From assembly GCA_964619405.1 (NCBI GenBank), contig CAZUCF010000005.1, positions 1-61,589 of the forward strand: a stretch of 61,589 nucleotides of DNA, read 5' to 3'. The stretch comes from an uncultured archaeon. Lineage in GTDB: Archaea > Iainarchaeota > Iainarchaeia > Iainarchaeales > JAAZKV01. Under the pieces are notes generated by a model. The model did not search any database. It saw only the letters and a list, made by a program, of their open reading frames with translations, and was not told the origin of the DNA. A program made the translations under genes and the position numbers. The first letter of the stretch is position 1, and each line of letters starts with the position of its first letter. Below, piece after piece: positions 1 to 61,589 of the stretch.

Positions 1-185
1 AAAAACACTAAAAAAAACAAAAAATAACCAAATCAACTACTTTTGTCCCAAAACCTTTGTTATGGATATTCTTTTATATTTCAAAAACTTATTTATAATA
101 TAATTATATTGTAATTAATTATAATTATCATAATTAATTGTGGTTTTTGTGATTGGTTTTGTGATTATTTTGTTTGGTGCTTTTA

Positions 186-3100
186 ATGGTTTTAAGAAAT
201 TCTTGTAAGAGTTCTATTGCTCAAGGTACTATTGAGTACTTGACCATTATGGGCGTGGTTATTGTTATTAGTTTAGTTGTGGTAGTTTTAGCTTCTAATG
301 TTTTTAGTGGGAATGATGTTGTTTTGGATGCTAGTCAAGATATTTCTTTACAGTTAAAAGAAATTGCTATTCTTGATGTTTTGTTGTCTCCTGATGGGAA
401 TTATATTGTTAGTTTGCAATCTAATTTAGTTGAGAATGTTACTATTACAAGAATTAGTTTTGATGATGCTTTTGAGGATTTTGTTAGTAACAATGTTTTA
501 ATGCTTAGAAGCAAAAAGATTTTTTTGGTTAGTATTCCTGATTTGAGGAGGCCTGATCGTTGTGTTAATGGTTCGCTTTTAACTAAAACGATTACTATTA
601 GTTATACTACTTCTCATGGTTTGGCTAAAACCCAATCTTTTTCTGGTTTGAGGGTTCCTTGTCAAGAATATGGTTTTAATGATGATATTGTTGCTTTGAG
701 TGATTGTGAGGTTGGCGAGTTCAAGCTTGGTAATGAGTGTGTTGTTTGTGCAAATAATGTTGAAGGGTTGTTTGCTTATGGTTCTGGAACAAGTAGTGAT
801 CCTTATTTGATTTGTAGTTGGGAACAATTAAATAATGTTAGGGAAAAATTGAGTAGTAGTTTTTTACTTGTTAATGATTTGGATTCAAGTAGTACTGGTT
901 ATGCGGATTTTGCTTCAGACACTGCTAATAATGGTGTGGGCTGGTTATCAATTGGGAATGAATTAAATCCTTTTGTCGGGATTTTTAATGGTGGTGATTA
1001 TTCTATAAGTGATTTGTATATTGATAGTTCGGGCACATCTGCTGGTTTGTTTGGTTTTACTAATTCTGCTATTTTATCTAATGTGAATTTATTGGATGTG
1101 ACTGCTGTTGAACAATCAGCAAATTATACTGGTGGTTTGATTGGTTATTCTATAAGCACAGTAATTAGTGATTCTTCTGTTTCGGGTAGTGTGGCTGGTG
1201 GGGCTTATGTTGGTGGTTTGGTTGGTTTGGCGGAGGATAATAATATTAAAAATTCTTATAATTTAGCATCAATTTCTTCTGGTGCTGATGCTGGTGGTTT
1301 GATTGGTTCTGATAATTCTAGTGTTTCAACAAGTATTACTAGTTCGTATAATACTGGTGTTGTTGATGGTTTTAGTAATGCTGGTGGTTTGGTTGGTTAT
1401 AGTTCAAGTTCAATAAGTGTTTCTAGTTCGTATAATACTGGTGCAATTTCAAGTGATTCTCTAGCGGGGGGTATTGCTGGTTATTTTGGAGCAAATAGTT
1501 TAATTGAGGGTTCTTATAATTCGGGAACAATAAGTGGTTTTGAGTATTCTGGTGGTATTGTTGGTAATGGTTTAGGTGACATAAATAATTCAAAAAATTC
1601 AGGGGTTATTTTGAATAGTGATGTAGGTGGTTATGCTGGGGGTATTGCTGGTAATTTTAATGGTACAATTTCTGATTCTTATAATGCTGGTAGTGTGACT
1701 TCAACTTATAATTATGCTGGTGGGATTGTTGGGCAAAGTTCTAATTCAATTTCTTTGAGTAATTCTTATAATCGTGGTGCGATAATTGGCGGGGTTAATA
1801 ATTTTGAACATTGTGATATGTTGGATTGGAGTTATTGCAATAATTTTTCTGGTAGTCCTGATGATTGTTATGGTGCTAGTTGTGAGTGGTATGAAGATAT
1901 TTGGATGGGTTGGTGTGTTGGAGGAGGAGAGTGTGATCCAATTTGGGACCCAGGGGAGTGTGCTGCTAATCCTAATTGTTATTGGGAAACTTTTGGTATA
2001 TGTGAGACTGCTTGTTGGAATTATGATTATGATGAGTGTAATGATAATTCAGTACAATGTTATCCTGTTGGTGATGTTTATGGTGGTGCTGGGGGTATTG
2101 CTGGTTTATTAAATACTGGTAATGTTAATTATTCTTTTAATACTGGTGCTGTTAGTGGTGGGGCTTTTTTAGGCGGGATTGTTGGTGGTGAATTAAGCAT
2201 GTGGTCAATTTCTAATTCTTATTGGGAGTCTAATTTGAGTGGGCAATCAGATTGTTATACTGGGGGCAATGTTGGGTGTTCTTCTACTTCTAGTGGTGCT
2301 TCTGATTATTATTCTTCTAGTAATCCTCCTTTGAGTTCTTGGGATTGGGGTGTTGGTGGTGATTGGTTAGAGGTTGGTTCTTCTTATCCTATGCTTACTT
2401 GGGAAGGAGTGAGTACTCCAATAGTTTCTTTGTCTTCTCCAGCAAGCAATGCTTATTTATTACCTAATGAAATAATTTTTAGTTATACTGTTTCAAGTGC
2501 TTTTTATGACATTAATTATTGCAAGTTTTATGTTGATAGTAGATTAATTGAAACTGATAATTCTATTTCACAGGGAGCAAATTCTTTTACTTATAGTTTT
2601 TTAGAGCATACTCCTGAAGAAGGCGTTTATTATTGGGATGTTATTTGCACTGATAGTTCTGGTGTTTCTTCGAGTAGTGTTGAACAAACTTTTAATGTGT
2701 TTTTTGTTGAGCCATCAATTAGTTTGTCAACACCCGATGATGAAATATATTTGCCTAGTGTAATTGATTTTGTTTTTACTCCGTCTTTTACTTATCCTAT
2801 TACTAGTTGTGATTTATTATTAAACGATGTTGTTGTTGATTCTGATGATAGCATTGATAATAATTCTTCAAACACTTTTTCTGTAACAGTTAATGATGTT
2901 AACGAGTATTCTTGGAGTGTGAGTTGTACTGCTTTTAATAATGAGGTTGAAAATAGCAGTAGTCTTGATTTTAATGTTGTTTCTGTTTGTCCGAGTGATT
3001 TGGTTGAGTATAATGGTATGTGTGTTGAGTGTGTTGAGGATTCTGGGGGATTGTATTTTGGTGGTACTGGTACTGCTGTGAATCCTTATTTGATTTGTAG

Positions 3101-4274
3101 TTGGAATCAATTAGCTAATATTAATAGTAATTGTTCAAAGAATTTTAAGTTGTTAAGAAACTTATCTGATGCTGATGATGATTATGTAACTTACGCTTCC
3201 CCCACAGCAAACGATGGAAAAGGTTGGCAGGCTTTGTGTAACAATGCTTGGGGTTTAGATGGTTATTTTAATGGTAACAATCACACAATAAGTGATTTAC
3301 ATTCAATTGGTAATTCTTATGGTTGTTTATTTAAACAGATTGATGGGAATGTTTCAAATTTAGGGATGATAGATGTTAATATCAGCGGAGCGACTCGCGG
3401 TGGAGGAATTTCTTGTAGCACTTATGCTTATTTATCTAATGTTTATGTTACTGGAAGTGTAAGTGGAAGTGATGTTGGAGGATTAGCTAGTTATATTGGT
3501 GGTAGTCGACCAACGGGTATTGAAAATTCGTATAACCTAGCAACTATTAGTGGGAGTAGTGAAGTTGGTGGTTTAAGTGGTTCTAGTGAGGGGGGGTCTA
3601 GGTATCCAAAAAAAATAATTAATTCTTATAATAGTGGAATTATAACATCGACTGATTATGCGGGTGGTTTAATAGGGCATGGTGAGTATGTACAAATATT
3701 TAATTCATTTAATGATGGATCGGTTTTTGGAGAAAGAATAGTTGGGGGTTTAATTGGTCTAAATGATGGTGGAAAAATATATAATTCATATAATTTAGGT
3801 TACGTAACAGGAAATTCAGATCATGTAGGTGGTTTAACGGGGTATGATAGATATGCTTTTGTTATAGAAAATAGTTATAATGTTGGAGATGTTGATGGGG
3901 GGAGTAATACTGGTGGATTAATAGGGTTTTTTACTTTTGCTAATGTGGGTAATTATGTGAAAAATTCTTTTTCAACGGGGCTTGTTACTGGAGATGTTAA
4001 TGTTGGAGGATTAATTGGTTGGAGAAGAGACGATTTTGTTAATAATCGTTTTATTGTTGCAGATAATCTTTATTGGGATACTATTTTATCGGGGCAGGAT
4101 CATTGTAATGATACTAATGAACAAGGATGTGTTTCTACTAGTACAGGAAATGCTTCTTATTATTATTCTTCTGCTAATGCTCCTTTGAGTTCTTGGACTT
4201 GGGGAGAAGATGGTAATTGGACAGCAAGAGACAATAATTATCCTATTCTAACTTGGCAGGTAGAAGACAGTTAA
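186..4274 (+). CDS. Large surface/adhesin-like protein: class III (pilin-like) signal peptide, two GLUG-repeat beta-helical modules, Ig-like domains, Cys-rich segments
   Basis: N-terminus ...SIAQGTIEYL plus hydrophobic stretch; many GGLIG/GGIAG (GLUG-type) repeats; motif G.GT..DPYLICSW.QL occurs twice. ATG at 186 preferred over the TTG at 174. Confidence 0.8.
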   Translation: MVLRNSCKSSIAQGTIEYLTIMGVVIVISLVVVVLASNVFSGNDVVLDASQDISLQLKEIAILDVLLSPDGNYIVSLQSNLVENVTITRISFDDAFEDFVSNNVLMLRSKKIFLVSIPDLRRPDRCVNGSLLTKTITISYTTSHGLAKTQSFSGLRVPCQEYGFNDDIVALSDCEVGEFKLGNECVVCANNVEGLFAYGSGTSSDPYLICSWEQLNNVREKLSSSFLLVNDLDSSSTGYADFASDTANNGVGWLSIGNELNPFVGIFNGGDYSISDLYIDSSGTSAGLFGFTNSAILSNVNLLDVTAVEQSANYTGGLIGYSISTVISDSSVSGSVAGGAYVGGLVGLAEDNNIKNSYNLASISSGADAGGLIGSDNSSVSTSITSSYNTGVVDGFSNAGGLVGYSSSSISVSSSYNTGAISSDSLAGGIAGYFGANSLIEGSYNSGTISGFEYSGGIVGNGLGDINNSKNSGVILNSDVGGYAGGIAGNFNGTISDSYNAGSVTSTYNYAGGIVGQSSNSISLSNSYNRGAIIGGVNNFEHCDMLDWSYCNNFSGSPDDCYGASCEWYEDIWMGWCVGGGECDPIWDPGECAANPNCYWETFGICETACWNYDYDECNDNSVQCYPVGDVYGGAGGIAGLLNTGNVNYSFNTGAVSGGAFLGGIVGGELSMWSISNSYWESNLSGQSDCYTGGNVGCSSTSSGASDYYSSSNPPLSSWDWGVGGDWLEVGSSYPMLTWEGVSTPIVSLSSPASNAYLLPNEIIFSYTVSSAFYDINYCKFYVDSRLIETDNSISQGANSFTYSFLEHTPEEGVYYWDVICTDSSGVSSSSVEQTFNVFFVEPSISLSTPDDEIYLPSVIDFVFTPSFTYPITSCDLLLNDVVVDSDDSIDNNSSNTFSVTVNDVNEYSWSVSCTAFNNEVENSSSLDFNVVSVCPSDLVEYNGMCVECVEDSGGLYFGGTGTAVNPYLICSWNQLANINSNCSKNFKLLRNLSDADDDYVTYASPTANDGKGWQALCNNAWGLDGYFNGNNHTISDLHSIGNSYGCLFKQIDGNVSNLGMIDVNISGATRGGGISCSTYAYLSNVYVTGSVSGSDVGGLASYIGGSRPTGIENSYNLATISGSSEVGGLSGSSEGGSRYPKKIINSYNSGIITSTDYAGGLIGHGEYVQIFNSFNDGSVFGERIVGGLIGLNDGGKIYNSYNLGYVTGNSDHVGGLTGYDRYAFVIENSYNVGDVDGGSNTGGLIGFFTFANVGNYVKNSFSTGLVTGDVNVGGLIGWRRDDFVNNRFIVADNLYWDTILSGQDHCNDTNEQGCVSTSTGNASYYYSSANAPLSSWTWGEDGNWTARDNNYPILTWQVEDS

Positions 4275-40300: not shown

Positions 40301-40586
40301 TATTCACTGGAAGAAGTTTTTGTTCTTTTTTTAAAATTTCTTACTATTTGTCATTAAAAAACCATTTGAACAATTTATTTCTTAAAGAAATAGATTTTTT
40401 CTTAATTGTTTTTGCTTATTTTTAATTTTAATTACAATTTATTGGATTAAATTGTGTTTTTTGATTAATTGTTGTTGTATTTTTAATTTTTGTTTATTGA
40501 ATTAAATAGTGTTTTTTGATTAATTACTATCCTATTTCTTTTCTTTGTAGTTCTTTGTCAAAAAATAATTATGTAGCATTAAAGTT

Positions 40587-40700
40587 GTTTGTTTATTTTA
40601 ATTTAGTTTGTTGATTTTTGTCTAGTTTGTTTATTTTAATTTAGTTTGTTGATTTTTGTCTAGTTTGTTTATTTTAATTTAGTTTGTTGATTTTAGTCTA
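40587..40700. repeat. Tandem repeat, 3 x 38 bp (each unit is two degenerate 19-mers)
   Basis: GTTTGTTTATTTTAATTTAGTTTGTTGATTTTTGTCTA at 40587, 40625 and 40663 (one mismatch in copy 3). Confidence 0.9.
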
Positions 40701-40772
40701 GTTATTATTTTTTTTAAATCATTTTTTGTTAACTATTATTTATTTTGCTTTTTTTTGTTTGACTTCATTTTC

Positions 40773-46323: not shown

Positions 46324-46402
46324 TTTTTACACCTCGTATTTTACCTTCCTTTAAACAAAAAACCCATTAAAGTGGGCTCACATTGATTTATTTCCACTAA
46401 AA

Positions 46403-46418
46403 AAGCTTTATAAAGCTT
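46403..46418. promoter_or_regulatory. Palindromic TATA element upstream of tuf
   Basis: Perfect 16-bp palindrome AAGCTTTATAAAGCTT; minus-strand BRE GAGAAGC matches other promoters in the window. Confidence 0.55.
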
Positions 46419-46522
46419 CTCTTGAACCCTTTCGTTGGTTCTCGCCGAGAGCGCATCTTCGTTTTAACTCGATGCACTTTAATAATTATTTTTTGTGTTC
46501 CTTCGGTAACACTTTATTAATT

Positions 46523-46614
46523 TTAATCTATAAAGAATTGCCAGCACTTTTTAAATTCTTTTAGAATTTAAAACCTGCACTAAAATGTGGCAATTAATCT
46601 ATAAAGAATTGCCA
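46523..46614. repeat. 21-bp direct duplication of the fusA 3' end flanking a 50-bp hairpin insert
   Basis: TTAATCTATAAAGAATTGCCA at 46523-46543 and 46594-46614. Confidence 0.85.
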
Positions 46615-51541: not shown

Positions 51542-51616
51542 TTTTTTTAAAAAATTTTTTTTCCTCGGTACGATACTTGTGAAATGTTTATAAGGAATTA
51601 TTCTGTTAACGTTATT

Positions 51617-52630
51617 ATGGTTAAAGATATTGTTGTTAGGAATTCTACAATAGATTTCTTAATTTTTACAAAAGATTCTGGCGAAAACATTGAAGCCAAG
51701 TTTTTTGATGATAATGTTTGGTTAACACAAAAATTAATTGCTAAGCTCTTTGATGTAGATAGAAGTGTAATAACAAAGCATTTAACAAATATTTTTGAAG
51801 AGCAAGAATTGAATAGTAATTCAGTTAGTGCAAAATTTGCACACACTGCTGCAGATGGCAAAAAATATAATACATTTTTTTATAATTTAGACGCGATTAT
51901 CTCGGTTGGTTATAGAGTAAATTCCAAGAGGGCAACGGATTTTAGAATTTGGGCAACAAGAGTACTAAAACAATTTGCGATTAAGGGTTATGTGTTGGAT
52001 AGAAAGCGATTAGAAAACGGTTCTTTTTTAAATAAAAATTATTTTGATGAATTGTTATCTGAGATAAGAGAAATTCGTTTGAGTGAAAGAAATTTTTATC
52101 AAAAAATAACTGATATTTATTCAACTAGTATTGATTATGATAAAGAAGCAAAGATAACAAGAGATTTTTTTGCGAAAGTACAAAATAAATTACATTATGC
52201 GATACATGGACACACTGCTCCTGAACTAATTGCAAAACGCGCTAATGCAAAAAAACAAAATATGGGTTTGACTTCTTGGAAGAATTCTCCACAAGGAAAA
52301 ATAATCAAAACGGATGTTTCAATTGCCAAAAATTATTTAACAAAAACAGAATTAGAATCATTTGGAAGAATAGTTAGTGCTTATCTTGATTTAGCTGAAG
52401 AAAGAGCAAAAAGAAAAATTCCAATGACTATGGAAGATTGGGCAAAAAGATTAGACAAGTTTTTAGAATTTGATGAAAGAAAAATTTTGGTTAATGCTGG
52501 TGAAATAAATTCAAAAAAAGCTAGAGAAATTGCGGAAAAAGAGTTTGAGAAATATCGTTTAATTCAAGATAAGTTATTTGAATCAGATTTTGATAAACTA
52601 TTCAAAAAAACAAAGAAATTGGAAAAATGA
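51617..52630 (+). CDS. RhuM-family (virulence RhuM / COG3943-like) protein
   Basis: VWLTQK.IA.LFDV.RS.ITKHL.NIF, YNLDAIISVGYRVNS.RAT.FR.WA, SERNFYQKITDIY.TS.DY, VQNKLHYAIHGHTA.ELI. Confidence 0.9.
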   Translation: MVKDIVVRNSTIDFLIFTKDSGENIEAKFFDDNVWLTQKLIAKLFDVDRSVITKHLTNIFEEQELNSNSVSAKFAHTAADGKKYNTFFYNLDAIISVGYRVNSKRATDFRIWATRVLKQFAIKGYVLDRKRLENGSFLNKNYFDELLSEIREIRLSERNFYQKITDIYSTSIDYDKEAKITRDFFAKVQNKLHYAIHGHTAPELIAKRANAKKQNMGLTSWKNSPQGKIIKTDVSIAKNYLTKTELESFGRIVSAYLDLAEERAKRKIPMTMEDWAKRLDKFLEFDERKILVNAGEINSKKAREIAEKEFEKYRLIQDKLFESDFDKLFKKTKKLEK

Positions 52631-56573: not shown

Positions 56574-56671
56574 AACTGATCACCTCGCCTGCAAAATCAG
56601 GCGGCACTTTTGGGCACCGTTAGTAGCCCTTAGTTTTTGCCTCCAAATTTTTTTGTACTCATTTTTTTCAC

Positions 56672-58486
56672 CTATACTTTGTCAACCAATTTTATTTTTG
56701 TGAGTATTCCTAGTGCTTTCAATTCTTCTAACAATAATTTGAAACCATAACTCATTTCAACAGGGTACATTCTTCCGCCCTTGCTTCCCAAAGCAACATT
56801 CTTTTTTCTTATTTCATCCCTGTATCCTATCAAACCTGTTTCTTCATCAACAAGTGCAACGAATTTATCTGAATCCTCAATCATTTTTTCATGGAGTAAC
56901 ATTGCTGCTCCGTGTCCAACAAGTGTTTCGCCCTCCATTTCTCCAAACCTTAAACCACCTTCTTTTTCTTTTCCTTCGGTTGGTTGTCTTGTAAGCATTT
57001 GTACTGGGCCCCTTGCTCTTGCTTGTATCTTGTGTGTTACAACGTGGTACAATTTTTGGTAAGGAATTACTCCAGTAAAAATTGCTCCTTCTAATCTTTT
57101 TCCTGTTACACCATCATAAAAAATTTCCATTCCATCATTTCTGAAACCCTTGTCTTCCAACATTTTTTCTAAAACACTTTGCTTTGTTGAATTGAATGGA
57201 GTGCCATCAATAATTTTTCCGTTTGCTGCACCAGCTTTCCCACCAATCATTTCTAATAAATGTCCCATAGTCATTCTTGAGGGAATAGAATGTGGGTTCA
57301 AAATTAAATCTGGTTTTATTCCGTCAATAGTAAAAGGCATGTCTTCTTCTGGAACAATATAACTAACAACACCTTTTTGTCCGTGCCTTGAAGCTAGTTT
57401 GTCTCCAACAGCTGGTTTTAATGTTGTCCTAACCTTTACTTTTACTAGCCTACTACCATCTGGGCCCTCTGTTATTAGTATTGTGTCAACAAAACCATCT
57501 TTTCTTTTTCTAACTATTACTGATGAATCAATTCTTTTTTCTTGTTCTACCCCAAAATCATTCATTTCTTCAAAAAATTTTGGTGGACTAGTCCTACCAA
57601 TAATAGCTTCTCCTTCATGAACCTCTTGTTCCAAATTAATTATTCCGTCTACTCCTAATTTAGAATATTTTTGTTCTTCAATAAAACCAACTTTTTCTTC
57701 TGTTGGTGCTTCAAACTTGTCTCTTTGCCCACCAGGGTACCTTTGTTCTATTGCCTCGTAACCCCTAAAATAACAACCCCTTGCTAGTCCCCTGTCAACT
57801 GCTCCTTGATTTAGTATTACAGCGTCCATTGTGTTGAAACCATAGTAAGGCATTATTGCTACTACAAAGTTTTGTACTTGTGGTCTCTCATCCATTCCAA
57901 GGACATCCATTGTCTTTGTTTTCACAATATTTTTTTCAGGATAATAAAGCATGTATCCTTCAGTATCATGTCTTAACTTAAAATTTGATGAACCAAATCC
58001 AATTGATTGTTTAAACATTTTGTCTCCGTGCAAAGCTTTTCCAGCCATGTCGTGTTCAATGTATGGTACCATGCTTGAGATAACACTTAGTATTGCTGAA
58101 CCATCTATCTCTAAGTGAGTGTGTTCTTTTGTTATCTCATTTTCTTTTTGTGCAACAAAAGTATTTTCTTCTTCTTCAGAATCAAGGTACTCTATAACAC
58201 CCATTTCAACTAGTTTGTTAAAATTTATTTCTCCGTTAGAAACCTTTTCTTGTAATTCGTGAGTGTAAGCACTCTTACCATTTTTTACAACTATTAATGG
58301 TCTTTGTAATCTTCCAGCATCAGTATTAATATAAACTTCGTTAGTGTCCTTGTGCAAAGCGATATTAGTTTCTTTTGGTAGTGCACCATCTCTTCTCGCA
58401 TTAATAGCAATTTTTGTTAGTTCTTCAGCGTTCTCGTGGAAACCAATTAACCTACCATTAATATATACTTTTGCTACATTAGCCAT
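56672..58486 (-). CDS. rpoB1: RNA polymerase subunit Rpo2C (B')
   Basis: INTDAGRLQRPL, GDKLASRHGQKG, LNPHSIPSRMT, RARGP...LTRQPTEG....GGLRFGEME. Confidence 0.98.
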   Translation of the reverse strand: MANVAKVYINGRLIGFHENAEELTKIAINARRDGALPKETNIALHKDTNEVYINTDAGRLQRPLIVVKNGKSAYTHELQEKVSNGEINFNKLVEMGVIEYLDSEEEENTFVAQKENEITKEHTHLEIDGSAILSVISSMVPYIEHDMAGKALHGDKMFKQSIGFGSSNFKLRHDTEGYMLYYPEKNIVKTKTMDVLGMDERPQVQNFVVAIMPYYGFNTMDAVILNQGAVDRGLARGCYFRGYEAIEQRYPGGQRDKFEAPTEEKVGFIEEQKYSKLGVDGIINLEQEVHEGEAIIGRTSPPKFFEEMNDFGVEQEKRIDSSVIVRKRKDGFVDTILITEGPDGSRLVKVKVRTTLKPAVGDKLASRHGQKGVVSYIVPEEDMPFTIDGIKPDLILNPHSIPSRMTMGHLLEMIGGKAGAANGKIIDGTPFNSTKQSVLEKMLEDKGFRNDGMEIFYDGVTGKRLEGAIFTGVIPYQKLYHVVTHKIQARARGPVQMLTRQPTEGKEKEGGLRFGEMEGETLVGHGAAMLLHEKMIEDSDKFVALVDEETGLIGYRDEIRKKNVALGSKGGRMYPVEMSYGFKLLLEELKALGILTKIKLVDKV

Positions 58487-58514: not shown

Positions 58515-58626
58515 ATTTACAATTTCTTTAATCTTACTCCTTGTCCTGTTTCGCCATGACCAGACGAAGCACTATCTGCGCTTCGCTTGATAGAGCGATT
58601 TACAATTTCTTTAATCTTACTCCTTG
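58515..58626. repeat. 29-bp direct duplication of the rpoB'' 3' end flanking a 54-bp GC-rich structured insert
   Basis: ATTTACAATTTCTTTAATCTTACTCCTTG at 58515-58543 and 58598-58626. Confidence 0.9.
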
Positions 58627-60063
58627 CTTGTGCAAGAAGTCCTCAACATTATCTTCAGCAACCTCTGTTGTAACCTCGCTCATAAAACACAAGTTTTTTA
58701 CTAAACCACATTGTGGGCCATCAGGAGTCTCAATTGGATCCAATCTACCCCAGTGTGTTCCGTGAACATCTCTTGCCTCATACAATTCTCTTGTCTTTGA
58801 TAATTGTGACTTAACTTTTCTCATGTCTGTTACTGGTGCCAAGTAATTCACTCTGTCCATGAATTTTGCTACTCCAGTACTCCTACCAATCCAATTACCA
58901 GTGCTCATAGCAAACCTTATTCTCTCGCTAACTGCTCCTGGTCTAACAATAGTAGAAATATTTAGTTTTCTTCTCCTCGTAACAGTCCTATCAACTTGGA
59001 ATCTCAAATCTTTCACAAAATATTTGAATGAGTACCTAAACAAGTGTTCCATTAGTTTCCCACTTAACTCTAGTCTCTTGTTAGCATAATGATCTTTGTC
59101 ATCCTTGCTTCTCAAACCATGGCTCCTCTCAATTGCTTTTGTAGCCATCATTGATAAATAATATGCTTTCGCTAGTTTTGATTCCTCGTCTTGCCCAATG
59201 TGTGGTAACAAGAAACCATTGATTACTTCTCTTGCTCTTCTTAACCTGTAATCAATTACTTGTCCTGGTGCAACAAACTTTCCTATCTTGTCTAAAGCAT
59301 CTTCTTCTTGTCTTATATCACATTCTTCCCAATTCAAACACAAGTCATTTTGTATTTCTATTTCTTCTGGGAAAGCATCAAAAATTTCTTTTCTTGTTTT
59401 TAATCCAAGTGCTTTGAACAAAGTAAATAATAATAATTTTCTTGGACTTGTTGGGAAAGTAGCATACAATAATCCCTCAGGGCTCCTTGTTACCCTTACT
59501 CTTCCCTTGAAAGCTCCTTTTGTTGATATTACTTCAGCAGAAGTTCCTTTTTCTCCTTCTGATATTAGTACTCTGTCACTAGACAAAACTTCTTGTGTCA
59601 TCAAAGCTTTTTCAGAACCATTAACAATAAAATAACCCCCAAAGTCTCTTGGGTCCTCGCCAGCATTAACAAGTTCGTTCTCATTCATGCCATTTAACCA
59701 GCACTTACTTGACTTAACCATTATTGGTAAATCTCCAATAAAAGTTCGTCTAGCATCTTGTTCAACATCTCTCCTAAACAATCTCATTGTCAAATAAATT
59801 GGGCCAGAATAAGTTCTGTTTCTTAGCCTTGCTTCCATTGGCAAGAATTGGTCTCTTGGAGAACCATCCGCCTCAATTATTTTTGGTTTTTCTATTTCAA
59901 TATTGCTTAACTCGATTTTAACTTCCTCTATTTTTGGAATAATCTCTTTATTCTCTTCAACAATATCATTTAATTTAATATCAACAAATTGGTTAAAAGA
60001 ATCTAACTCCATTTGAGCAATATTCTTTTCTTTTAAATAAGAGTTAATTAATTCCCAACTCAT
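58600..60063 (-). CDS. rpoB2: RNA polymerase subunit Rpo2N (B'')
   Basis: P.EARLRN.TY, DPRDFGGYFIVNGSE, DDKDHY.NKRL, HGTHWGR..P.ETP.G..CGLVKNL. Confidence 0.97.
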   Translation of the reverse strand: MSWELINSYLKEKNIAQMELDSFNQFVDIKLNDIVEENKEIIPKIEEVKIELSNIEIEKPKIIEADGSPRDQFLPMEARLRNRTYSGPIYLTMRLFRRDVEQDARRTFIGDLPIMVKSSKCWLNGMNENELVNAGEDPRDFGGYFIVNGSEKALMTQEVLSSDRVLISEGEKGTSAEVISTKGAFKGRVRVTRSPEGLLYATFPTSPRKLLLFTLFKALGLKTRKEIFDAFPEEIEIQNDLCLNWEECDIRQEEDALDKIGKFVAPGQVIDYRLRRAREVINGFLLPHIGQDEESKLAKAYYLSMMATKAIERSHGLRSKDDKDHYANKRLELSGKLMEHLFRYSFKYFVKDLRFQVDRTVTRRRKLNISTIVRPGAVSERIRFAMSTGNWIGRSTGVAKFMDRVNYLAPVTDMRKVKSQLSKTRELYEARDVHGTHWGRLDPIETPDGPQCGLVKNLCFMSEVTTEVAEDNVEDFLHKQGVRLKKL

Positions 60064-60209
60064 TTAAACCACTCTCCGTCCTGTTTCCAAGAAAAATTGA
60101 AATTTTTCTGGACCCGCAAAATTCCATTTTGCTTGGTCGTCAGGACCAAACGAGTAATATCTTCGCAACAAGTTGCTCGATATTGATTTATTCATTTAAA
60201 CCACTCTCC
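60060..60209. repeat. 18-bp direct duplication of the rpoH stop / rpoB'' start junction flanking a 114-bp structured insert
   Basis: TCATTTAAACCACTCTCC at 60060-60077 and 60192-60209. Confidence 0.85.
60064..60195 (-). CDS. Putative 43-aa coupled mini-ORF between rpoH and rpoB''
   Basis: Hand translation: MNKSISSNLLRRYYSFGPDDQAKWNFAGPEKFQFFLETGRRVV*; TAA-ATG abutting at both ends; expression unverified. Confidence 0.35.
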   Translation of the reverse strand: MNKSISSNLLRRYYSFGPDDQAKWNFAGPEKFQFFLETGRRVV

Positions 60210-60438
60210 TATAATAAGTGGTTTGGCCAGCGGTAATAGAATCTCTAATAATTTTTACTACGTCGCCCCTATCTGCTTTCAAAGGTTTTATTGCGGGGTC
60301 AAGTTTAGTTATTTTTGGCAAAGAGTTTTTATTAATACCTAGTTCATTCATTAACTCGTCAGCTTTTTCTTTTCTTATTAGAACGTGTTCGGGAACCAAA
60401 TAATGTCTAATTTCTTCAACCAATAAACCACCAGGCAA
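60196..60438 (-). CDS. rpoH: RNA polymerase subunit Rpo5 (H)
   Basis: H.LVPEH.L...E...L...L.I....LPKI...DPA.....A..GDV.KI.R.S.TAG....YR.V; start may be TTG at 60423. Confidence 0.95.
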   Translation of the reverse strand: MPGGLLVEEIRHYLVPEHVLIRKEKADELMNELGINKNSLPKITKLDPAIKPLKADRGDVVKIIRDSITAGQTTYYRRVV

Positions 60439-60714: not shown

Positions 60715-61589
60715 TTATGGGGAGCAACTAGTGAAATTAGGCATATACTCTGGTAGTAATGGTGAAGAAGTATTGAAATATGAACAAGAGGTTACGCTAC
60801 TTACATCCCAAGAACTAATATCTTGATTAAAATCTGACCACCTAAACATTTGTTTCATATTTGTTACATTTGATACATCCCAACCACTAATATCTTGATT
60901 GAAAGCAGATGTATAAAACATATTTTTCATAGTATTTACTTTTGAGGTGTTCCAGTTATTTAATGGATAATTAAATTTAAGGGTTCCTGCGAGTGCTCCC
61001 TCCATATTTGTTACATTTGAAACATCCCAATGATTAATGTTTTGGTTAAAATCTACGCATATAAAAAACATATATTGCATGGTTGTTACATTTGAAGTAT
61101 CCCAATTATCAACATTTTCATTAAAAAAAGAGCTATAAAACATCCAGTCTAGATTTGTCATATTTGTTGATGCTTCATCAAAAAACGTTGGGCATGAAAG
61201 ACTTGTAAATTCTGTGTTTGCAAACATGCTATCTGCAGAAGTCAAGTTTTTTATTGCAGGGCTTAAAGGAGTAAATATATCATTAAATAATTCTGGTGTG
61301 GAACCATCTTGGCCAAAAGATACTCTGCTTGCTTGCCCCTTCAAAGAAATATTATAATCTCCTATTAAAGAGTATATTTGTGTTCTTAATGCGTTTCCAT
61401 CTGCTAAATTTTCCCAACCATTTCCCAAACCCCAATCAATTTGCATTCCAACAGCATCATCAATCCAAAATTTATATTCTTGATTATTTTCAGTTGTTTT
61501 AATCTGAAAAATAAATGGAGGAATTGGGGTTATAGGTGTTTTTGTTGTTGTTATTTCTGTTTGGCAGTTAACTGTTATTGTTTGGGTTA
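60715..61589 (-). CDS. DUF285/BspA-type repeat surface protein (5' end lies outside the window)
   Basis: Repeats of WD.SNVT.M..MF....FNQ.I..; the frame stays open from the ATG at 61446 to the window edge (TQTITVNCQTE...). Confidence 0.85.
   Translation of the reverse strand, partial: TQTITVNCQTEITTTKTPITPIPPFIFQIKTTENNQEYKFWIDDAVGMQIDWGLGNGWENLADGNALRTQIYSLIGDYNISLKGQASRVSFGQDGSTPELFNDIFTPLSPAIKNLTSADSMFANTEFTSLSCPTFFDEASTNMTNLDWMFYSSFFNENVDNWDTSNVTTMQYMFFICVDFNQNINHWDVSNVTNMEGALAGTLKFNYPLNNWNTSKVNTMKNMFYTSAFNQDISGWDVSNVTNMKQMFRWSDFNQDISSWDVSSVTSCSYFNTSSPLLPEYMPNFTSCSP

Follow-up and report, generated by a model that had tools for sequence, protein, structure and literature searches.

The junction between rpoH and rpoB'' in an uncultured archaeon of the Iainarchaeota (DPANN) raises the question of how a 43-codon open reading frame, referred to here as ORF43, came to lie stop-to-start between two RNA polymerase (RNAP) genes. 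The window, that is, the whole 61,589-nt stretch of DNA analyzed (positions 1 to 61,589 of contig CAZUCF010000005.1), carries on its minus strand an RNAP operon with the order rpoH, rpoB'', rpoB', rpoA' and rpoA'', and further on S7, EF-2 and EF-1alpha. The original prediction, made from the letters of the DNA, had proposed that the sequence containing ORF43 either was selected to keep translational coupling or encodes a leader peptide or attenuator controlling RNAP subunit B. We favor another answer, to which we give a probability of about two in three: the additional 132 bp would result from one insertion of a 114-nt hairpin-rich element, belonging to a wider family, at the rpoH/rpoB'' junction, with duplication of the target. 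ORF43 is most likely a by-product of this insertion.

The sequence GGAGAGTGGTTTAAATGA was found exactly, on the minus strand, at 60192-60209 and at 60060-60077, with a spacing of 132. No third copy exists in the window even when three mismatches are allowed, and two copies were obtained in 0 of 100 shuffles. We describe this layout as T-I-T', where T is the 3' end of a gene including its stop codon, I the insert and T' the copy of T. T1, the original target copy (60192-60209), holds the last rpoH codons, the TAA stop and ATGA, while T1', the duplicated copy (60060-60077), provides a Shine-Dalgarno (SD)-like GGAG, the TAA ending ORF43 and the ATG of rpoB''. Between them, the 114-nt insert I1 (60078-60191, minus strand) runs from a 5' hairpin through a linker (..CUCGUUUGGUC) and a branched domain to the 3' end GAAACAGGAC. 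ORF43 itself (MNKSISSNLLRRYYSFGPDDQAKWNFAGPEKFQFFLETGRRVV; 60064-60195, minus strand) appears in the list of open reading frames with 43 codons and no in-frame stop. At copy 1, rpoH ends in ..YYRRVV-TAA with an ATG directly after; at copy 2, ORF43 ends in ..GRRVV-TAA, directly followed by the rpoB'' ATG. The 18-bp repeat with its GGAG, rpoH stop and ATG, the period of 132 bp and the uninterrupted 43-residue frame, as first described, were all recovered exactly.

The tight fit of ORF43 follows from the repeat: TAA-ATG stands at both of its ends, and the peptide ends in RRVV, because the duplicated T1 holds GGAG, TAA and ATG. The start context of ORF43 (-14 to +4) is likewise identical to that of rpoB''. 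Only two facts about ORF43 are non-trivial, namely a length divisible by 3 and the lack of a stop. Given such a length, the frame stayed open in 5% of mononucleotide and 15% of dinucleotide shuffles, and with a factor of 1/3 for the length itself the chance is ~2-5%, which is only mildly unlikely. The original prediction correctly recognized an insert, and the coupling that it considered to be maintained is formally intact, but the cause is mechanical: the duplicated target makes both junctions identical.

An uninterrupted allele was identified in strain X8, whose contig joins 60059 to 60192 and skips exactly 132 bp (60060-60191), with 5 substitutions in 251 nt of flanking sequence. X8 is an empty site in a strain ~98% identical. 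T1 is the single copy there, and its 18 letters match both sides of the X8 joint; X11, from the same study, carries the insert. The closest species have compact rpoH/rpoB'' junctions (TGATG in L001, TAATG in L009 and L043, TAAATG in L033, overlapping genes in L085-L087), and therefore the overlapping stop/start is ancestral and the 132 bp are an insertion. Since a ~98% identical strain precisely lacks it, I1 is dispensable. A tandem duplication of rpoH/rpoB'' sequence followed by divergence was also considered and rejected, the spacer being unlike the flanking 114 nt.

Regarding the filled allele, the 132 bp are identical in two independent Logan assemblies (L081 and L082), and the start of the insert was also found in an ENA MEGAHIT contig from another project (L083). 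Words of the insert occur in runs of at least seven studies, which sampled wastewater, manure, landfill, digesters and biofilms, and contigs of X1, X2, X4-X7, X10-X12 and X18 carry it with 0 substitutions. Beside this comparison of strains, we noted that L001 is 95% identical to the window in RpoB'' and 77% in RpoH, and L002 93% and 88%, respectively; this discordance suggests that recombination breakpoints may lie near the rpoH/rpoB'' junction.

The T-I-T' layout is present three times in the window, at the ends of rpoH, rpoB'' and EF-2, and recurs in related Iainarchaeota genomes. A weak BLAST match of I1 to L029 fell in the next operon spacer, which led to the unit at the rpoB'' end. Its first copy, T2 (CAAGGAGTAAGATTAAAGAAATTGTAAAT; 58598-58626, minus strand), comprises the rpoB'' 3' end, TAA and AT, and forms a 29-nt exact direct repeat with a spacing of 83. 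It is followed by the hairpin insert I2 (58544-58597, minus strand), a 54-nt short-form member of the family (..AAGCGAAGCGCA..GUGCUUCGUCUGGUCAUGGCGAAACAGGA), and by T2' (58515-58543, minus strand), an exact second copy of the rpoB'' end, after which a normal spacer leads to the rpoB' ATG at 58486. Strains X4, X8 and X16 carry a long-form variant of I2 with 48 additional nt just 5' of GAAACAGGAC. Orthologous rpoB''-end units were found in L021/L056 (repeat of 30 nt, period 83), with I2 orthologues of the short form, and in L029/L057 (24 nt, period 135), with the long form. Decayed units were also recognized: T and T' of L067 show 4 differences, all synonymous; in L002 a 16/18 match surrounds a perfect hairpin; in L020 a degenerate T' comes directly after T, which looks like a possible excision footprint.

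The third unit, at the EF-2 end (46523-46614, minus strand), was found by a scan for close direct repeats. Its T (TGGCAATTCTTTATAGATTAA, 46594-46614) and T' (46523-46543) form a 21-nt repeat with a period of 71 around a 50-nt hairpin (46544-46593) unrelated in sequence to the I1 family. X4, X5, X8 and X16 all possess this unit, with one single-nucleotide polymorphism (SNP) in T' of X8. The first 6 nt of T reappear in reverse complement as the first 6 nt of the insert, and the hairpin arm resembles part of T, hints that this insert may have arisen by fold-back or template switch.

Over the window and the relatives, the last 18 nt of an open reading frame recur exactly within 300 nt downstream at 7 of 1349 ends, while internal control 18-mers gave 0 exact recurrences and none above 16/18. 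The right edge of T lies 0-4 nt past the stop in all clear cases. For family members, T ends in TAAAT and begins at or near GGAG, both T1 and T2 reading GGAG..TAAAT. The duplications measure 18, 29, 30, 24 and 21 bp, for an overall range of 16-30 bp. All three units of the window are located in highly expressed operons, and the orientation of the insert always matches that of the genes.

Alignment of I1 with the L029 insert yielded a score of 47 against 14.4 +/- 2.3 for shuffles (z=14), and two further relationships were detected, at z=6.2 to I2 of the window and at z=5.6 to the 56-nt spacer between rpoH and rpoB'' in L007; none of the three alignments was equalled in 1000 shuffles (0/1000 each). 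Members share the order 5' hairpin, linker (..CGUYUGGUC), optional two-hairpin module and the end GAAACAGGAC directly before T'. The 5' hairpin combines an outer stem (..UAUC/GAUA..) with a GA/GAA internal loop that is invariant and an apical stem that is hypervariable and reads GCAAC/GUUGC, GCC/GGC or G/C across copies and GUACCC/GGGUAC in another contig. Three compensatory pairs were counted among three copies, and further variants occur in other contigs. The hairpin motif TCGAG..CGAAGA is found twice in the window against 0.03 expected, and a second hairpin with the GA/GAA loop (GCAUC-GA-G-UUAAAA-C-GAA-GAUGC; 46451-46477, minus strand) lies in the EF-2/EF-1alpha spacer. The L029 insert has the layout of I1: its first inner hairpin is the same except for the loop, its enclosing stem displays a U-A to A-U flip (GGUCC/GGACC versus GACC/GGUC), and a different perfect hairpin replaces the second inner hairpin. 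The family core was also found with different flanks in the X1-X3 and X32 contigs, where it apparently sits at another gene end. The family is conserved as a nucleic-acid structure with a few sequence blocks, not as a peptide. It is also modular and changes between near-identical strains, since these differ by the 48-nt module of I2.

The predicted fold of the 114-nt spacer (-29.4 kcal/mol) is better than that of shuffles (z=-2.9, and z=-2.8 with the flanks). It includes hairpin 1 (60156-60184, minus strand), with the outer stem AAUAUC/GAUAUU, the conserved GA/GAA internal loop and the variable apical stem GCAAC-UU-GUUGC, the pairing AAUAUC..GCAA/UUGC..GAUAUU being part of the prediction. The branched domain (60078-60146, minus strand) is closed by GUCCUG/CAGGAC and contains two inner hairpins, GCAAAAU-GGA-AUUUUGC and AGAAAAAU-UUCA-AUUUUUCU. 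I1 also contains a T5 run. The GTCCTG/CAGGAC domain and the AATATC stem drawn in the original prediction were thus both found again. Its inner CCAAG/CTTGG stem was not the choice of RNAfold, which favors GACC/GGUC plus an 8-bp hairpin; CCAAG/CUUGG and GACC/GGUC are alternative pairings in I1, and CCAAG/CUUGG is retained in the homologous L029 insert.

Several known RNA motifs were compared with I1 and rejected. For a kink-turn (L7Ae site), the core letters fit (GC-GAA-GA / C-GA-GC), but 3-4 copies covary in favor of the alternative register, where that GA forms Watson-Crick pairs. For a hammerhead, CUGACGA and GAAAC are present, but covariation supports a closing stem in which this CUG is paired to CAG, the in-register G12 is absent, the short form has no CUGANGA and no Rfam match was obtained. 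A tRNA-like reading found no ARAGORN match, ARAGORN detecting no tRNA. For an archaeal bulge-helix-bulge (BHB) intron, checked by hand, only a UUAA/UUAA central helix with flanking helices of 2 bp is possible. Rfam at a permissive threshold (E<=10) returned no credible match for the three loci. Collections of phages and plasmids contained nothing matching the insert DNA. The core was not found by exact search of viral contigs, nor the hairpin-1 pattern in JGI metagenomes (0 matches each), and motif scans of the window and of the relatives' DNA recovered only the known copies. A search of the literature on long target duplications at stop codons or on DPANN mini-elements found nothing matching.

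On this basis, the following scenario can be proposed. In the uninterrupted allele, rpoH ends in ..GGAGAGTGGTT-TAA, with rpoB'' starting at the adjacent ATG. A 114-nt element would have entered this junction in an Iainarchaeota archaeon, duplicating 16-18 bp of T. Because T holds an SD-like GGAG, a stop and a start, the junction would have been recreated on both sides, with the end of rpoH preserved in copy 1 and the SD and ATG of rpoB'' in copy 2. From the copy-1 ATG a frame would then open into the element, and the 44-codon unit, having no stop, would run to the TAA of copy 2, so that the peptide ends in RRVV and abuts the rpoB'' ATG. Between -14 and +4 the copy-1 ATG has the same context as the rpoB'' start, and ribosomes finishing rpoH may therefore initiate again there, cross the hairpins, stop at copy 2 and initiate once more on rpoB''. 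ORF43 is thereby probably translated, and could act as a passive relay keeping the coupling, not as a regulator. The element would be kept for its structure as RNA or single-stranded DNA, whether as a selfish insertion, as intercistronic mRNA structure or as both.

Insertion may be envisaged by staggered cleavage, by integration of an I+T unit in the Campbell manner, or by template switching guided by microhomology. A single-crossover (Campbell-type) integration would also yield T-I-T' and precise excision. The shared edges of T (TAAAT and GGAG) suggest either that certain targets are preferred or that template switching, guided by microhomology, started from another filled gene end.

Several observations weigh against the insertion scenario. 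First, X8 has SNPs, probably derived, in common with filled strains: 60222C (RpoH T73A) is found in L083, and 59980G in X4 and X5. The empty site of X8 may therefore reflect secondary precise loss or recombination, and the direction of the event is inferred. Outgroup polarization of X8 is weak, third-codon positions being saturated at 78-89% DNA identity. Secondly, 0 substitutions were seen in the insert over ~10 runs, against 4 variable synonymous sites in the 233 nt of rpoB'' next to it, which hints at constraint or very recent spread. Thirdly, T and T' are exact copies at the rpoB'' site in the window, L021 and L029, though T differs between these genomes. A single old insertion is therefore insufficient there, and the pattern argues for repeated site-specific (re)insertion or homogenization. 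Both long-form copies (I1 and L029) are open stop to stop (p~0.02 over ~6 events), which leaves room for selection for translatability of long-form copies. No other copy of I1 occurs in the window, nor at >=85% identity in the X1 metagenome, indicating a low copy number. The 61.5-kb window contains no transposase, integrase, reverse transcriptase or Cas1 gene, the inserts have no terminal inverted repeats, and their long, variable duplications (16-30 bp) are unlike those of known prokaryotic transposons. The RNA runs checked for the region did not contain it.

A role for the element as a co-opted cis-acting RNA, either a protein-binding site or a processing or stability signal in the polycistronic RNAP and EF mRNAs, is possible but tentative. 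It would center on the 5' GA/GAA hairpin and the conserved ..CGUCUGGUC..GAAACAGGAC core, and it is compatible with an insertion, the duplication only recording the arrival. The constant orientation with the genes speaks for such a role, as do the compensatory changes with hypervariable apical stems, the covarying hairpins in the same spacer of many relatives and the location of the three window copies in highly expressed operons. Between the window and L021, the core is moreover better conserved than the adjacent coding repeat (28/28 versus 26/29). This conservation could, however, equally serve transposition; the element is dispensable in close strains, Rfam offers no match, and the K-turn, hammerhead, BHB and tRNA-like readings each fail on inspection.

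Equally tentative, and in our judgment more probably wrong than right, is the proposal of an undescribed class of ~50-115-nt modular mobile elements in Iainarchaeota (DPANN), integrating at gene 3' ends and duplicating 16-30 bp including the stop. Such elements would have neither inverted ends nor an enzyme gene close by, so that integration may proceed via an RNA or single-stranded circle or by template switching. The re-created stop, SD and start would allow them to colonize even overlapping junctions between essential RNAP genes, giving birth to translated relay ORFs such as ORF43.

Somewhat less likely again is that ORF43 was itself selected as a relay, I1 persisting in an essential coupled junction only on account of its stop-free frame and of a length divisible by 3. 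Translating ribosomes would unwind the hairpins and deliver termination-reinitiation at rpoB'', and out-of-frame insertions at this site would have been purged. The start context shared with rpoB'', an open frame expected only ~2-5% of the time by chance, the likewise open long-form copy of L029, the stable fold (-29 kcal/mol) and the invariance of the insert over ~10 runs while neighboring synonymous sites vary are all in keeping with this idea. As a single event, however, selection is inseparable from chance. L029 has no start after the stop, the short-form copies are out of frame at an uncoupled junction, and coupling is not obviously required, since copy 2 has its own SD and the predicted accessibility of the rpoB'' SD/ATG is the same in both alleles (mean unpaired probability of 0.32 in the filled and the empty allele). 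Sequestration of the SD by the insert is not supported either, given this equal accessibility.

That ORF43 encodes a functional small protein, leader peptide or attenuator, itself or its translation sensing a signal and tuning RNAP subunit B'' via alternative hairpins, is very improbable. A short ORF overlapping hairpins directly upstream of rpoB'', the T5 run and the invariance of the insert among strains could be read in this way. Yet a search of 5.8 billion proteins gave no homologue of ORF43, Pfam and a look-up of the exact product gave no match, and gene finders never called it. Its codon-usage score is 0.03 per codon against 0.42 +/- 0.13 for 43-codon windows of real genes in the window, none of which scores as low. 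The insert has no regulatory codon runs and no conserved terminator/antiterminator alternative, and it is absent from the near-identical strain X8 and from all the closest species (L001, L009, L043, L085-L087).

The homologous inserts are the most telling on this point. Unit periods of 83, 83 and 89 in the family, and of 71 for the unrelated EF-2 unit, are not multiples of 3 (83 mod 3 = 2), stops are present and no start follows the stop. The 135-bp unit of L029 is open from stop to stop, without a start codon after the stop, and the frame in which GAAACAGGAC is read differs between the two long copies (ORF43 and L029). The homologous L007 hairpin is part of a spacer that begins with TAG and carries an SD of its own. 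The original prediction had proposed frame conservation in relatives' inserts as a check of its reading; with periods of 83 and 89, stops, missing start codons and shared motifs in different frames, the leader-peptide idea appears, from these comparisons, close to refuted by its own yardstick.

An intervening sequence at the RNA level, in which one I+T unit is removed from the transcript by BHB-type or other splicing so that the mRNA equals the empty allele and T' is kept because it becomes the real gene end, is likewise highly unlikely. It would account for the exclusively synonymous differences at 4 positions between T and T' of L067 and for T=T' in three genomes, and an RtcB ligase gene is present in the window. 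However, T1/T1' cannot be folded into a bulge-helix-bulge, offering no more than a UUAA palindrome whose flanking helices are 2 bp long. A SNP in T' of the EF-2 unit in X8 is absent from T, T' of L029 has a 2-nt deletion, the empty allele exists as DNA, and changes confined to the coding copy T would likewise be expected to leave synonymous differences only. Finally, an assembly or sequencing artefact, with two alleles of a bubble concatenated, can practically be dismissed: although all repeats (18-30 nt) are below common k-mer sizes, different assemblers and at least seven studies gave the same structure, single contigs span both junctions, and the repeat lengths do not equal k-1 of any one assembler.

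Regarding the genes themselves, rpoH, encoding RNAP subunit H, is listed at 60196-60438 (minus strand; 80 aa from the TTG at 60438, the start also used by gene callers). The TTG at 60423 (75 aa) is the more likely start because a GGTGG SD lies upstream, and the reading from it begins with MVEEIRHYLVPEH.. RpoH was identified by PF01191 and 100 homologues, and its C-terminus YYRRVV* is kept in relatives. The list of open reading frames and the homologue search place rpoB'' (RNAP subunit B'', 487 aa) at 58600-60063 (minus strand), backed by PF04563/04561/04565, and rpoB' occupies 56672-58486 (minus strand; ATG at 58486); EF-2 was identified by Pfam. The relatives found with RpoB'' are all Iainarchaeota, "Ca. 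ainarchaeum" or Forterrea-type DPANN metagenome-assembled genomes. In L085, an intein-like insertion in RpoB'' (~2010-2154) follows ..ETPDGPQ/C (CIAPNTEIFLDDY..), hence a gene call of >839 aa. A small hydrophobic, membrane-like ORF of ~60-150 aa stands between rpoB'' and rpoB' in L003, L010, L033, L046, L051, L055, L060, L063 and L069.

The window has a GC content of ~30%. A RhuM-family gene (PF13310, E=4e-107) at 51584-52630, on the plus strand within the otherwise co-directional rpoA''..S7 cluster, is likely an inserted island gene. The region 40420-40713 has 21% GC with tandem repeats of 19 nt (40587-40713) and 55 nt (40420-40529). A 1366-aa protein with Glug motifs and internal repeats (174-4274, plus strand) and a DUF285 (BspA-like) repeat protein (60715-61446, minus strand) flank the core operons.

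Other spacers are also structured. The EF-2/EF-1alpha spacer (46324-46522, minus strand) is packed with GC-richer hairpins with CGAAG/CGAAAG loops, and a terminator-like CCCA..UGGG with a U-run lies near 46365. The 98-nt rpoB'/rpoA' spacer (56574-56671, minus strand) has two GC-rich hairpins, GGGCUACUAACGGUGCCC and CGCCUGAUUUUGCAGGCG, and no duplicated gene end was seen there. Close relatives have 9-10-nt spacers at the neighboring rpoB''/rpoB' junction. Across Iainarchaeota, the rpoH-rpoB'' spacer varies from -4 to +203 nt. Position-conserved hairpins with compensatory changes occupy it in several sub-lineages (L008, L010, L044-L048; L013, L028, L054, L073, L079; L012, L016, L050), for example GGGGCC..GGUCUCC versus GGACC..GGUUCC, or UUGGC-GAAA-GCUAA versus UUGGC-AAAC-GCCAA, followed by a conserved GGGTGAG SD. 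These hairpins may be lineage-specific cis-RNA elements.

The interest of the locus lies less in the peptide than in the element family and its harmless seat within an essential operon. A "perfectly coupled" mini-gene that is the geometric outcome of a target duplication is a warning for the search for small ORFs and leader peptides. An essential coupled junction tolerates the insertion, the element bringing no signals and the duplicated target supplying them twice. The locus also exposes very small structured elements with unusually long target duplications at DPANN gene ends, whose mechanism could be new; to our knowledge, the mobile elements of DPANN are poorly known. If ORF43 is translated, as would be expected from its start context, it would be a dated, strain-polymorphic case of de novo ORF birth in a core operon. 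The GA/GAA hairpin and the covarying rpoH-rpoB'' hairpins of relatives suggest unexplored post-transcriptional control of archaeal RNAP subunits.

Among known systems, the bacterial repetitive extragenic palindromes (REP/BIME, REPIN) are short GC-richer hairpins located after stop codons and inside operons, which can stabilize upstream mRNA. They are moved without target duplication by RAYT (HUH) transposases and reach hundreds of copies. Like them, the present element is an imperfect palindrome downstream of stops, oriented with the operon, lying in AT-richer surroundings and having little information content beyond its structure. Unlike them, its clear copies are each enclosed by 16-30 bp of duplicated gene end, copies are few, the host is archaeal and no HUH/RAYT gene was seen in the window. 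Miniature inverted-repeat transposable elements, or MITEs, such as Correia elements and the Sulfolobus SM elements, are small non-coding, non-autonomous insertions flanked by target repeats, sometimes co-transcribed, which can create or modify ORFs and have a fixed 2-10 bp duplication. As with MITEs, related copies are found at different sites (the rpoH end, the rpoB'' end in 4 genomes, X1-X3/X32) and X8 has an empty site. In contrast to MITEs, the ends of I1 (ATAAATCA.. / ..GAAACAGGAC) and of I2 (CGCTCTATC.. / ..GAAACAGGA) are not complementary, the duplication is long and variable, the orientation to genes is strict and no related autonomous insertion sequence lies in the window; we know of no parent insertion sequence for the element.

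Rickettsia palindromic elements, selfish palindromes of ~100-150 nt, survive in essential genes by staying in frame and being translated. Survival by staying translatable would be a shared trait, but these elements sit in ORFs and join the host protein, whereas I1 sits between genes with a separate 43-aa product made possible by the duplicated stop/start, and other members of its family are out of frame. Spacer integration by Cas1-Cas2, and casposons, convert R to R-S-R, with 14-30 bp of target duplicated around the inserted DNA. The T-I-T' geometry matches this outcome, but the insert is a conserved structured element, not a random spacer, it has no casposon inverted ends, the window has no Cas1 gene and the targets are gene ends, not a leader-proximal repeat.

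Integrative elements at gene 3' ends duplicate their att site, are kilobases long, encode an integrase and restore the site by precise excision. The repetition of a gene 3' end on both sides is alike, as is an element-proximal copy with synonymous differences, as in L067; here, however, the whole insert measures 50-115 nt and related inserts use different targets (rpoH, rpoB'' and the third gene end of X1-X3). Leader-peptide attenuators are conserved features, fixed within the species, that combine a defined terminator/antiterminator pair with diagnostic codons. As in the bacterial rplL-rpoB attenuator, a short ORF and hairpins lie upstream of an RNAP beta-subunit gene, but such conservation, fixation and diagnostic codons were not found for ORF43/I1, and its alternative pairings formed no clear terminator/antiterminator pair. 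The element fails defining features of each system that it resembles, and we file it as a small non-autonomous insertion element, with a modest chance that it reveals a new mechanism.

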